Part shown: one piece after another, positions 28,835 to 55,492 of the stretch | Layout: the number at the start of each line of letters is the position of its first letter | How positions within the stretch are numbered: the stretch's first letter is position 1 | From: Eledone cirrhosa | Taxonomy: Eukaryota | Reading direction: 5' to 3' | Length of the DNA: 64,000 bases | Assembly: GCA_964016885.1 (NCBI GenBank) | Contig: OZ024742.1 | Coordinates: forward strand, 115,630,001-115,694,000 | Notes under the pieces: generated by a model | What the model was told of the DNA's origin: nothing | Databases searched by the model: none | What the model saw: the letters and a program-made list of their open reading frames with translations, nothing else | Program-made: the position numbers and the translations under genes

Positions 28835-28940
28835 AAGTGGTAACATAACAGTTAGTTCAGCATACCGGTACGAGCTGAGGATCTGCTAAGGTGAAACTAA
28901 TTGTTATCGGTCTGTTGAACTAACTGTTGTGTTACCACTT
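28835..28940 (+). repeat. Fold-back PLE-type end with a hammerhead-like core in the loop
   Basis: ~33-bp inverted arms (aagtggtaacataacagttagttca... / ...tgaactaactgttgtgttaccactt) enclose CTGAGGA-tctgctaaggt-GAAA-ctaattg-TT. Followed by TA-rich sequence. Confidence 0.6.
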
Positions 28941-29017
28941 ATATAAATATATATGTATAAGTATATATATATGTATATATATATATATATATCTATATAT
29001 ATATATATATAAATATT

Positions 29018-29704
29018 TAGACAGACACCATTTAAACAAAGTCAGGGGTATATATGTGTTTTGGCAACTTTTCACGTTGTGGCTCAATGAAGAATTGATA
29101 AATTAAACAATCAGAGCAAAATACTAGAGTAAAACATGTCCAGAGAATTATTTGATAATATATATTATCAAATAATTCTTTGACATGTTTAACTCTATTA
29201 TATATATATATTTATATATACATATATATATATATATATATATATATATATATATATATATATATATATATATATATATATATATATATATATATATATA
29301 TATATATATATATATATATATATATATGTATATATATATATATATATATATTTATATATATATATACATATATATATATGCATATTTATATATATATATA
29401 TTTATATATAATATATATATATATATATATATAAATATACATATATATATATATATATATATATATATATATATATATGAATATATATATATATATATGT
29501 GTATATATAAATATATATATATAATAGAGTAAAACATGTCAAAGAATTATTTGATAATATATATTATCAAATAATTCTCTGGACATCTTTTACTCTAGTA
29601 TTTTGCTCTGATTGTTTAATTTATTAATTCTTCATTGAGCCACAACGTGGAATGTTGCCAAAACACATATATACCTCTGACTTTGTTTAATTGGTGTATG
29701 TCTA
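29018..29704. repeat. Nested palindrome around a (TA)n tract
   Basis: Arms 29018-29200 and 29520-29704 are inverted; each contains its own 73-bp hairpin (29125-29197, 29525-29597). Confidence 0.85.
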
Positions 29705-30237
29705 TGTATACTCATATATATAATGAAAAATAACGTTGTCTACCAGGAATCATTGGTATTTCTTCGCTTAGAGACAATATACCTCAGCCTAGGGCGAATA
29801 ATAACTGAAATAAGTTATTGGGATAACAGAAGTGGGTGGGGGCACATGTAACAGACACGAAGGGTGAAGCACGTAAAGGGAGGAAAAAGTAGGAAAAATA
29901 GCAAGTCAACAACATATTTCGAAAGTAAGAACTGGCGAATTTTGTCGAGAGACGAAATAGACACGTCTTAGCTGTAGCAGTGTTAGCGAACGAAGAGGCT
30001 GCGTACAGTGCCGGACGAGGGAGGAAGTGAGCTAGCGGAGAGAGCAAGGGAGTGAAAGTAAGAGGAAGCGAGGAAGAGATCGTTATAATGGGAGGCTAGC
30101 CGAGAGAAGGTGAATAGCAGAGGAGGTGAGCGAAATTAAGAGTGATAAGGTGATATATTGAGTTAAATACACACACTAGCCCCCTATAATTAAAATAGCT
30201 CAATGAGAAAATGTTTTCCGATAGTAAGGAGAGACGG

Positions 30238-30731
30238 AGACGAACACATGTATATAGCTATATGTGTTCCAATCCCAAAATAATTCTCCTTGAGTTGTTT
30301 CAATTATAGGGGACTTTTGACAAATTCGCTCCATCGCTTTGTTGAGCTTTAATACATTGAATAGTTCTTACTGCTATTTTTCTAGTAACCAACGTTCTAT
30401 TCGTTCCGCCTGGCACATTATATCCATGTGCTCTCTCTTTTACCTCATATGTGTTATTTAGTTTTCTATCAACCATAGTAGTGAAGTGAGTATTCATGTG
30501 GATACTTGTTGAGAAGTACGACCCGAATAAATCACTCCCGGAATTTTGCGAAACAGTTCTACCCATAACCTGCCTGGGTACATGATAGTTATAATGTTAG
30601 GTTCGTTTTCCTCAACTTATCCTTTTGTTTGGGTTCTGTGAACCATACTATTTTAGTCAATATTTTCATTAGCCGGACTGTCGCTGTCCCTTGTGATTTA
30701 AACACATATAGCTATAAATCTGTGTTCGTCT
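30238..30731. mobile_element. MITE-like element with ~31-bp terminal inverted repeats
   Basis: agacgaacacatgtatatagctatatgtgtt ... aacacatatagctataaatctgtgttcgtct. Confidence 0.5.
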
Positions 30732-51743: not shown

Positions 51744-54700
51744 TAACATTATTCTAGAATTTAATTTAATTTAAATGTTAGTTAACCTATAAATTTAATT
51801 TAATTAATATTTTATTACAGATGAGAAAATATTATGTAATCATAAATTTTGAAAAACCTTTAAATATTACTAATATATATTCAGTAATTTAATTTATAGA
51901 TTAATTTTAACTTATTTTAACCTTTTATTATAATTTTTTAATTTAGTTTAACCTTTTATTATAATTTTTTTTATTATAATTCCTTTACAGATAAAATATA
52001 ACAAAATAATATCATGTATCCTATGACGGAGAAAGAATTTTTAGTATTATAGACCTAATTAATATACATTTTGGAAATATATTTATTATTTGGTTTTAGT
52101 TTTAATCAACCTAAAACTTTAATTTTAATTTGCTTAAAATTAGTATCCTTGTACAGACGAATTGCAGAATGTCATGTAATCATAGAATGGGAGGTGTTTT
52201 GGATATATACCTAGTTAATATATTCTGTGCAAATTTTTTGAAAAAGATATGTATATCTATATGTATATGTATATGTGTGTGTTGTATGTGTATCTGTATG
52301 TATATTTATGTGACTATATATGTATGTATGTATATATATATGTATATATATATATATATATATGTGTATGTATATGTATATATATGTGTATGTGTATATA
52401 TATGTATATGTATGCGTATTAATTTTGATTTTTATTTGCATATAATTATATTATGCTATTGATGAAATACAATATCTGCTTTATGTATTGTATACCTAAT
52501 TAACATATACTAATTAACGTATACTATTGAAATAAATATATAATTTTTAATTTAGTTAACATATAATTTATATGCTACTACCGATGTAATACTTTATTTT
52601 ATTTTTATTTGGGTTTCTTTTCCCTAGTACTAAATTCATCTCCTAATATTGATACCATAACGTTATTAACTTTAATTTAGTTATAATGTAATTAATAATC
52701 TACTACTGTTTGACTTCATAATTCTGCTTCAAATATTATAAACCTAACTAATTTACACCTTGGAAATCAATATGTTGACTATCTTTGGTTTAGTTAACAT
52801 ATGATTAATGGTATACTTTTTTATTTTGTGATGCATAGATTTCGTATTTCCTAGCACTGAAAATATGTAAGAACATACATTGAATTAAGATATGGAAAAT
52901 ATTATATGTTTCTTGAAAAATATATTTACTTTGATCCCCTTCTCCAAACCCCCCCTTTCCCCCATACTATTATCATCTGTTTTTGTAAGCGTATATGTAT
53001 GAATATATGTGTAGATGAGTGTCTATATAGGTTTTGGTATTTATTTCTAAATATAATAATATATATATGAGCATGTAAATATGAATGTAAGATTGAGTGT
53101 GTATATATGATTGTACATACATATGTACGTATATATATGTATATATATGTATATTATATATGTATGTGTATGTGAATGTGTGGTATGTATATGTGTATGT
53201 ATATGTATATATGTGTGTGTATGTGTATGCTTGTATATAGGAATATATATATGTGTATATATGTATATATATGTATATGCGTGTTTGTATGTATGTGTAT
53301 ATGGGTTCTGTATATATTTGTATGTCTCTCTATTTATATGTTTATCTTAGTGTCTATGTGATATATGTGTGTGTGTGTGCACGTATGCTTATGTATGTGT
53401 TTGTGTGTGTTTGTATGTGTGTGTGTATATATATATATGTATTTGCGCACACTCACATACACATATATATATATATATATATGTGAGTGTTTATGTGTGT
53501 CTGTGTGTGTGTGTGTGTGTGTATGTGTGTATATATATATATGTGTATATATGAGTATGTGTGTGTATATAGATATATATATATATATATATATATATAT
53601 ATGTGTATATAGGTGTCTATGTGTGAATATATGTCTTTATTCGTATATGTGTATTTATATATGTATATATTTAGGTGTATGTATGTATGTGTATGTATGT
53701 ATGTGTATGTATATATGTGTATGTATATGTGTATATGTGTGTATATATATATATATATATATATATATATATATATATTATTCTTTATTATTATTGTAAT
53801 ATAACTTATGTGTATATGTGTATAAGTGAGGTTGTGTATGTATATATACTATGTGTATATATAAGAGTAATGAAATATATATATATATATATATATAAAT
53901 GTGCATGTCTGTATTTTATGTGTGTGTGTATATATATATGTGTATGTGTGTATATATGTATGTATATATACATATATGTGTACGTGTGTGTATGTTGATA
54001 TATATATATATATATATATATATATATATTTACATCTGGGTGTTTGTATGTGTTTTTATGGTGGTATGAGTGTGGGGATATATATGTTTGTATATGTGTA
54101 TGTATGTGTATGTATATATATATGAGTCTGTGTGTGTGTGTATATATATGTGTATATATATATATATATATATATATATATATGTGTGTATGTGTGTATG
54201 TGTTGCGCGTGTGTGTGTGTGTATTTATATCTTTTTATATGTGTATGTGTATGTTCATGTAAATGTATGTGTGTGTATGACAGTATAGGTATGTGTGTAT
54301 GTATGTATGTGTAGATATCTCTATGTGCGCGTAAATGTATGTATGTGTATGTATATCTGTATGCGTATGTACATTATATTATATGTACTATATTTTATTG
54401 TTTTTATTTTTTTATTTTTCTTAATTTATAGATACATTTATATTAGGCTGTCTGGTCTGACAATCTAATACTGACCCCTCCCCCCCCCCCCCCCCCCTCC
54501 CACCTAATTTCTGTATCTTGATCTTGAAATGTGTGTACCAGTGTTTTTATGTGAGTGACTTAATTTCTTTTTGCTTATGATTTTATATCCACATATATAA
54601 ATGTGAGTGGGGGAGTGTGTGTGTTTGTGTGTTCGTGGTTATGTGTATATTTATATATATACGCACATGTATGTGTGATTATACTGATATGTGTGAGTAT

Positions 54701-54967
54701 GAAAAAAATATATTTATATGCTTGACTCCATAAGTATCATTGCGTATCTTATCAGCGCATTAAGCTTACAGAGATATTAACCTTGAAATTTTATATTTGC
54801 ATCCATCTTTTTAGTATGCACATACAAATTATACACACATTATTGTAAAATATGTGTAAGGTTTTTACATGTATATACACACACCAAACTGCTTTTTAAC
54901 CCTTTGTGTTTTCATTGGTCAATTTTGAACTGATATTTTGAATTGTTGTTATTATCAATAAATATAC

Positions 54968-55122
54968 TTCATTATTTCTGAAGACGGCGTATATATGAGT
55001 TAGGTATGTATATTTAATCTTGATAATTTGTATAATTTTGTATAATTTTGTACATAGATCTGTTAAATATGCATACCAATTATAACACATATATACCCTA
55101 GAAACGATCGTTAAATAGTGAA
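54968..55122 (+). ncRNA. Type I hammerhead ribozyme with ~115-nt stem II in the PLE 3' region
   Basis: Stem I ttcattattt/aaatagtgaa; CTGAAGA at 54978-54984; stem II helices gtatatatg/catatatac and ggtatgtatatttaa/ttaaatatgcatacc; GAAA at 55101-55104; palindromic cgatcg; GUU site. Confidence 0.72.
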
Positions 55123-55492
55123 CTTTTTTTGTTTAATATAAGGAATTGTTTGTTCATTATTTGCTTAATATTTTATCTTGACTCTGTATACCGTTTATCT
55201 TTCACCGAAATTGGATTTTCATTTATCTCTTCTTTCCATGATATCCGGAATACATTGAGTTCTTCATACGGATTGGACACTAACGTAAACTCTTGGTAGA
55301 TTTATCTACATATATATATATATATATATATATATATATATATATGTTCATTAGTTAAGCAAAACAAGACCAAAAAATTCACAAGGAAGACGTTATCTAA
55401 AGAGTGTCAACATAGTTGCAGTTTAATGTAAGGAATAAGGAGTGTAATTATAGTTTAATGTAAGGAATAATAATAATAATAATAATAATAAT

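Follow-up and report, generated by a model that had tools for sequence, protein, structure and literature searches.

The window considered here is a stretch of 64,000 nucleotides from Eledone cirrhosa (assembly GCA_964016885.1, contig OZ024742.1, positions 115,630,001 to 115,694,000), in which palindromes of several families are embedded in (TA)n repeats and carry a unique tail at one end only. Judged by their motifs, families A to D are insertions into (TA)n of at least four families of Penelope-like elements (PLEs) with Hydra-type motifs. The lopsided palindrome probably arises from reverse transcription that is primed twice, once on each strand of the cut target, at two fixed sites, the end and the start of the tail, which likely lie on the same RNA.

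Architecture and fixed ends of the insertions

The main elements were checked by self-comparison of the window and by reading of the sequence. A, B, and C all run in the order of TA repeat, inverted arm, centre, sense arm, unique tail, and TA repeat, and the coordinates proposed for them in an earlier note, which had been made from the letters alone, were reproduced to 1–2 nt. In element A (30864–31020), the inverted, tail-less arm and the sense arm, which has lost hammerhead stem III, occupy 30864–30945 (+), followed by a 75-nt tail at 30946–31020 (+); the left TA run has only about three units, and (TA)16 stands after the tail. A solo tail-less copy of family B, ending on (TA)n at the tail boundary, lies close by at 31059–31137 (+). 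Element B itself consists of a tail-less arm (41843–41881, −) with a 17-nt internal deletion and a non-templated G at its inner end (C at 41881 on the + strand), a sense arm (41884–41946, +) that runs from the inferred start region and holds the 3′ half of a hammerhead, and a 77-nt tail (41947–42023, +), with (TA)n outside both ends. Element C is a 10.7-kb palindrome (44484–55309) with (TA)n flanks on both sides. Its tail-less arm of 5.34 kb (44484–49825, −) starts on (TA)n exactly at the tail boundary, its sense arm (49828–55176, +) is 5′-truncated at unit position about −5377, and its tail of 133 nt (55177–55309, +; 134 nt in most copies) is followed by (TA)18. The two arms are 99.72% identical over 5,351 columns (4 mismatches and 4 gaps) and are separated by a loop of 2 nt. 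Within the sense arm are a 5′-truncated open reading frame (ORF) of 637 of 813 aa (49830–51743, +; mirror copy at 47910–49823), which comprises the reverse transcriptase (RT), an Asn-rich linker, CxCX5C, and GIY-YIG, and a pseudo-long terminal repeat (pLTR, 54970–55120, +) that has an initiator (Inr)-like start at the A of 54971 and a hammerhead motif of type I in which stem II is long.

The genome searched amounts to 3.0 Gb, and the tails alone were used as queries, so that the shape seen in the window was not selected for. This yielded 553, 413, and 386 candidates for A, B, and C, with 40 scored and 30 loci fetched per family. Tail hits run into TA repeats in 86 of 90 cases, the other four being internal C tails that continue into the 5′ untranslated region (UTR) and ORF. 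An inverted arm is present in 25 of 30 A loci, and all 25 arms end within −10 to +8 of the boundary, in an A-rich stretch, none of them carrying the remainder of the tail. In family B, 27 of 30 loci have an inverted arm, which ends exactly at the boundary in 26 and bears a tail in none. The 30 C hits correspond to 27 insertions, of which 18 have an inverted arm ending at −1 (16) or at −6 (2), again with no tail at the outer end (0/18). The earlier observation that the inverted arm stops short of the tail is thus borne out, the endpoint being fixed in A, B, and C, as is the proposal of one architecture from ~100 bp to 10.7 kb, because family C alone includes palindromes of 114 bp, of 259–418 bp, and of many kilobases, up to over 10 kb.

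Matched exactly, family B shows 19,292 tail-less ends genome-wide and nearly as many junctions with a tail (19,306), while the reversed patterns used as controls have 0 matches. Since every family is repeated and the B counts contrast with these controls, the architecture is not a product of chance. Pairing was sampled on 195 B ends among the matches listed, all in the first 29.5 Mb of sequence C1, at a pair distance of at most 300 bp. Each of the 54 head-to-head pairs carries a single tail, and the ends left without a partner, 46 with a tail and 41 lacking it, set an upper limit on solo copies because a partner carrying a mismatch escapes the exact pattern. The centres are mostly unique, with distinct junction geometry in 19 of 22 A, 21 of 23 B, and 9 of 9 C insertions. 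Family D shows the same two ends, tailed and tail-less, and among 30 loci of another family, E, 15 ends are tail-less, 9 tailed, and 6 unclassified; the tail-less end of a further family, F, looked variable. The tails of D have (TC)n before (TA)n in most copies (L439–L468), and some ends of A, B, and D adjoin (GA)n, which suggests slippage or a second target repeat.

Coding Penelope-like elements behind the palindromes

Links to ORFs were obtained by walking upstream from copies of A, B, and D. For A, the ORF passes at its 3′ end without a break into the 3′ UTR in all of 20 loci, and the whole unit of about 4.25 kb is present in L210+L211, where the tail continues into the 5′ UTR and ORF; two other apparent links were dropped as nested foreign ORFs (L180, and an ORF after the terminal tail in L183). 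For B, more than 10 of 30 loci have RT and endonuclease (EN) matches immediately upstream in the same orientation, and D is tied to a PLE ORF through L460 and L468. The 813-aa ORF of family C contains YRDD and YIG motifs, and the unit around it measures 6,189 bp and forms partial tandems. In tblastn, the C ORF matches those of A, B, and D at about 27–58% identity by stretch, and the atlas neighbours of the window's C ORF at 0.96–0.97 include clusters with RVT_1 + GIY-YIG; Pfam and PDB sequence searches returned no RT or GIY-YIG/EN match. The earlier idea that the palindromes belong to elements encoding RT and GIY-YIG therefore holds for A, B, C, and D, and E and F were not tied to an ORF.

The same units contain hammerhead cores (CUGANGA ... 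GAAAC ... stem III/I), found by motif inspection. C, E, F, and the parent of A have the whole motif, as does, by eye, the tail-less arm of D, and the window copies of A and B keep only its 3′ half, in the case of B because the start lies inside stem II. A whole or half hammerhead in each element, as the earlier note had it, thus stands by inspection of motifs and received no score from Rfam, which gave no hammerhead family match among the best 150 of 179 matches, nearly all of them microsatellite hairpins.

The Hydra clade, as described in the accessible text of PMC8557442, comprises PLEs with a C-terminal EN, (TA)n targets, and a hammerhead motif, known from Mollusca among others. Families A to D are assigned to this type by motifs: the C protein has RWR at 37, DKT at 115, CNCRNKTNC at 673, CRLC at 771, and CNH near 800, with no CCHH pair; A has RWR, DKT, CxCX5C, CxxC, and CxH; B has DKT, CxCX5C, CxxC, and CxH; and D has CxxC and CxH with a damaged linker. 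An initial assignment to Neptune/Nematis was abandoned on these diagnostics. Shared with the clade, according to the same text, are a C-terminal GIY-YIG, RW(K/R), DKT, a CxCX5C linker, CxxC and CxH around conserved E and N, the lack of a cysteine pair between the GIY and YIG equivalents, the hammerhead motif, and (TA)n insertion. In contrast, A and C have RWR instead of RWK, and, because of microsatellite-rich 3′ UTRs, their units (about 4.25 kb and 6,189 bp) exceed the general length of <3 kb, a trait that is descriptive rather than diagnostic.

The shape of PLE insertions has been published: an inverted 5′-truncated pLTR with a one-sided tail is described in the parts of PMC8557442 and PMC3846280 that were accessible, and a lopsided shape in PMC8969392. 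Partial tandems (pseudo-LTRs), an inverted 5′-truncated copy, and a one-sided tail recur here in C (L097/98, L099, L101/102, L108/109, L111) and in A (L210+L211). The head-to-head inverted copy, the partial tandems, the tail at one end, the TATA/Inr of the pLTR, and the Asn-rich insert between RT and EN are all in common with those accounts, whereas the tails are longer (about 60–134 nt vs 30–40) and most copies are stubs that run from the inferred transcription start. To the extent of the accessible text, both papers propose self-priming or EN-mediated resolution, whereas two primed ends are proposed here.

Starts of the two arms and competing explanations

The inner ends of the arms cluster, at −61 to −63 in 14 of 30 A loci and at −54 to −64 in 20 of 30 B loci; in 9 of 15 short C copies, one arm ends at −194 to −207. 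In long copies, these start sites lie ~30 nt past a TATA-like box (A, B) or within an Inr-like word (C). Right after (AT)n, 22 of 28 A ends show a G that is in neither parent nor target, the parent having C in 30 of 31 long copies. A non-templated G likewise stands at the start in 52 of the first 100 of 230 B ends (parent T, 35/35) and in 6 of 14 C ends (parent C, 50/50), the latter alone not being significant (p = 0.11). At a control start 4 nt downstream, G occurs in 2 of the first 100 of 162; one other control position was discarded because the parent base there is itself G (36/44). RTs are able to copy the 5′ cap as an extra G, and the non-templated G is likely such a copy. In contigs of other runs (X1, X6), the summed depth on the C pLTR rises at about 54942–54983, and one X6 short-read contig holds a head-to-head joint at 54971. 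Given this clustering at a TATA/Inr-like start and the extra G found there, the stubs were likely primed in the upstream pseudo-LTR and copied all the way to the RNA 5′ end, and are not random aborts; the view of the short palindromes as abortive products is not supported in that form.

Tail-less arms beginning at the start site also occur alone, in 7 of 26 A solos (6 with G), 11 of 30 B loci (7 with G), and 7 of 10 C solos (4 with G). Of 14 long palindromes of family C, 6 have the longer arm on the tail-less side (up to 10.5 vs 3.1 kb) and 7 on the tailed side, and only that of the window is symmetric; the arm lengths are uncorrelated (rho = −0.42, p = 0.14). Nevertheless, the two arms of one insertion share variants far above chance (52/54 vs 20.7 expected; B, 35/37 vs 22.9; C, 177/180 vs 120.4), which argues for a common template or a common source of both. 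No site segregated in family A, and the three discordant C sites, all outside the tailed arm of L117, are an alignment artefact.

Such sharing would also be expected if a single tail-primed cDNA folded back and was copied until the tail boundary, the asymmetric and solo forms being later deletions. Self-priming of PLE inverted copies has been proposed (PMC3846280, accessible text), and fold-back was the whole mechanism in the earlier note. The symmetric C hairpin of the window with its 2-nt loop, the match of arms at segregating sites and at some private variants, and the inverted microhomology of 0–4 nt at most centres all agree with it. A single fold-back predicts, however, that the tail-less arm is never longer, never solo, and never starts with a cap G, and all three predictions fail. 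Tail-less solos and tail-less arms, that of the window B copy included, begin with a non-templated G, and fold-back alone is insufficient because a copy made from a folded strand cannot carry the primer's own last base; in the six long C copies, the tail-less arm is longer although the arms are 99.6–99.9% alike. Moreover, AT or (TA)n fillers stand at some centres (L360, L362, L404), and folding does not account for an endpoint at one fixed base. As the sole source of the palindromes, fold-back is accordingly considered unlikely, but it may serve to close the centre in some events, as an alternative to end-joining of two cDNAs made on one RNA.

Two other explanations are less probable still. 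If the stubs were self-propagating non-autonomous elements (short interspersed element- or retrozyme-like RNAs) copied as whole hairpin units, the very high copy number of B, the tandem hammerhead units of E (650–770 bp) and F (313–317 bp), in which no ORF was found, and the 17-nt deletion that recurs in many B inverted arms (in copies selected by query) would be readily understood. The centres are mostly unique, though, the TATA-like box upstream of the start is missing from the stubs, and long ORF-bearing copies have the same ends; the explanation is quite improbable as a whole, and only for E and F does it probably hold to some extent. TA flanks and a palindromic shape also recall miniature inverted-repeat transposable elements (MITEs), here as TA-targeting DNA transposons, and perfect long palindromes can be sequencing artefacts, which might concern the assembly of the 10.7-kb copy. 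The elements have no symmetric ends, and MITEs are excluded by the one-tailed pairs (54/54) together with the copy-specific centres, which are not uniform; in addition, the ORF links go to RT/EN. The elements of the window are not MITEs, just as the earlier note had maintained. An artefact is hardly compatible with C arms that have 8 differences between them and share the family boundary at which they stop with 17 other insertions, or with the joint at 54971 in a contig of another run, and this last pair of explanations scarcely deserves credence.

Since the predictions of fold-back fail, the tail boundary acts like a separate priming site that, like the tail end, matches (TA)n in 2–3 bases. 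This fits what is reported in the accessible part of PMC11167929 for Poseidon from Anolis, a predicted dimer that in vitro cuts and extends both strands and whose RT starts at two sites bracketing the tail; how inverted arms arise is not addressed in that part. AT-rich targets, a hammerhead in the pLTR, and two start sites around the tail are common to both systems, although Poseidon belongs to another clade. A fuller version of double priming, which is favoured only slightly, couples the two events on one capped RNA: each target strand would have its own fixed start, the tail would be the offset between them, and most events would begin in the pseudo-LTR at the 5′ end and finish by run-off at the cap, leaving tens of thousands of hairpins that mimic MITEs. 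For double priming as such, the following order of events is proposed. A capped RNA would start in the upstream pseudo-LTR and read hammerhead, boundary, tail, ORF, 3′ UTR, pseudo-LTR, and tail. The RT–endonuclease would nick both (TA)n strands, each 3′ end pairing through 2–3 bases (AUA/UAU) at one start site. Priming in the 5′ copy of the pseudo-LTR would end in run-off at the cap after about 60–210 nt and yield stubs, and priming in the 3′ copy would give long, variably truncated arms. The two new strands might then be linked head to head, either through end-joining or when one of them folds back and subsequently meets its partner, and the survival of a single strand would leave a tailed or tail-less solo.

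Several observations weigh against double priming. The arms of the near-perfect C hairpin of the window end at most 3 nt apart, 5.3 kb into the unit, around the 2-nt loop, a geometry classically expected of fold-back, and two independent truncations would rarely coincide in this way. Six locus-private variants on both arms, as well as the matched arms, fit fold-back equally, and later loss of the centre in long palindromes could produce asymmetry in either direction. For L217 and L222, two of the 14 long palindromes, the fetched DNA did not show the tail. Poseidon shows no strand preference for its two sites, and, in the accessible text of PMC11167929, both strands used both starts, whereas here the sites are strictly split between the arms. 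Among loci of about 3 kb, 30 of E and 25 of F, no linked ORF was found. The start site and the cap are likely ones, deduced from DNA sequence.

Some copies show further peculiarities. The 17-nt deletion runs across hammerhead stem III, is bounded by two 7-nt direct repeats, and is found in many B copies (among L001–L030, and L043) whose centres differ, and the arm that carries it could reveal which strand was made on a DNA template. Several arms of long C copies end near unit position −5250 to −5560 (the window copy, L217, L222, L225/6, L230, x3=L393, and L096), possibly at an RT stop or an internal start inside the ORF. In L056, L057, L046, L426, and L224, the tailed side is barely more than the tail and is joined to the inverted arm or directly to (TA)n. 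The interior of L072, a family A palindrome, is a GC-rich, foreign segment of about 210 nt between short A ends, a possible capture in trans.

Other elements of the window and significance

The earlier note had listed three variants of the architecture, of which the first two to be considered keep their shape and change strand and extent. Family D, given as 28835–28940, is a minus-strand stub at 28798–28940, with a short tailed arm (28835–28865), a longer tail-less arm with the hammerhead core (28866–28940), and a tail remnant (28798–28834) that had been left out; the remnant is partly deleted and followed by (GA)n. Family F, given as 44011–44385, also lies on the minus strand and extends over 43838–44398, its tail of about 43838–43993 reaching beyond the former interval. 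It includes a tail-less arm (44398–44337), a tail copy (44335–44206), a unit of ~316 bp that holds the whole hammerhead motif (44075–44023), and a tail (43993–43838). The third variant, the window copy of family E (36270–37445 in the note), does not serve as an example of a fixed end. It occupies 36272–37572 (+), where two tandem units of 650 bp follow a short inverted piece (36272 to about 36365). Both units contain the complete hammerhead motif; the family boundary falls at 36725/37375, and the units end at 36826/37572. The inverted piece starts within hammerhead stem II, at 36272, instead of at the family boundary. Tandem periods are 650–771 bp in E and 313–317 bp in F.

By their tandem hammerhead units, E and F appear to resemble non-LTR retrozymes, for which a PLE origin has been proposed in metazoans (PMC7229834; bioRxiv 10.64898/2026.07.22.740005; both in their accessible parts). 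With the retrozymes described in the accessible text of PMC7229834, they share tandem, ORF-less, low-GC units and a type I hammerhead motif, whereas the units of E are larger (650–770 bp) and both families also form inverted insertions. Missing from the earlier list are two hairpin-and-tail stubs of family G, at about 29013–29198 and 29520–29722, which are inverted around a long (TA)n. They are 93% alike with the same centre, probably by local duplication, and are 77–79% alike to the E tail.

Elsewhere in the window, a decayed PLE ORF of another family with RT, CxCX5C, and GIY-YIG remnants lies at 56860–58777 (+), with no clear pLTR nearby. Inverted repeats at 31358–32008, 32806–33131, 34434–34543, and 43575–43800, with arms 70–93% identical, may be further families of the same kind, older or other. 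The segments at 1–1887, 12923–16215, and 59392–63454 and those at 18718–22332 and 55466–56734 are, we assume from their motifs, decayed copies of non-LTR retrotransposons of at least two kinds, one having an RT with a C-terminal cysteine motif and the other an endonuclease and an RT.

While the insertion shape is known, the Hydra-type motif assignment and the non-templated G with its control are new here, together with the strict one-tail rule backed by genome-wide counts and the solos of both kinds. A literature search, in which most subscription papers were beyond reach, returned no report of any of these points, no description of PLEs with two primed ends or with stubs that run off a cap G, and no mention of Hydra elements in such a genome. 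The origin of the tandem and inverted PLE structures and of the tail is named as unresolved in the accessible text of PMC8557442, and a separate start of each arm would explain how the lopsided shape arises. Stubs of this sort are open to mis-annotation as MITEs, and the intact-looking ORFs (that of C, 813 aa) are candidates for enzymes. With thousands of young insertions that combine the one-tail rule, a likely start site, and both kinds of solo, the two-start model becomes testable, and, if coupled double priming is true, this genome would document on a large scale how PLEs integrate in vivo.

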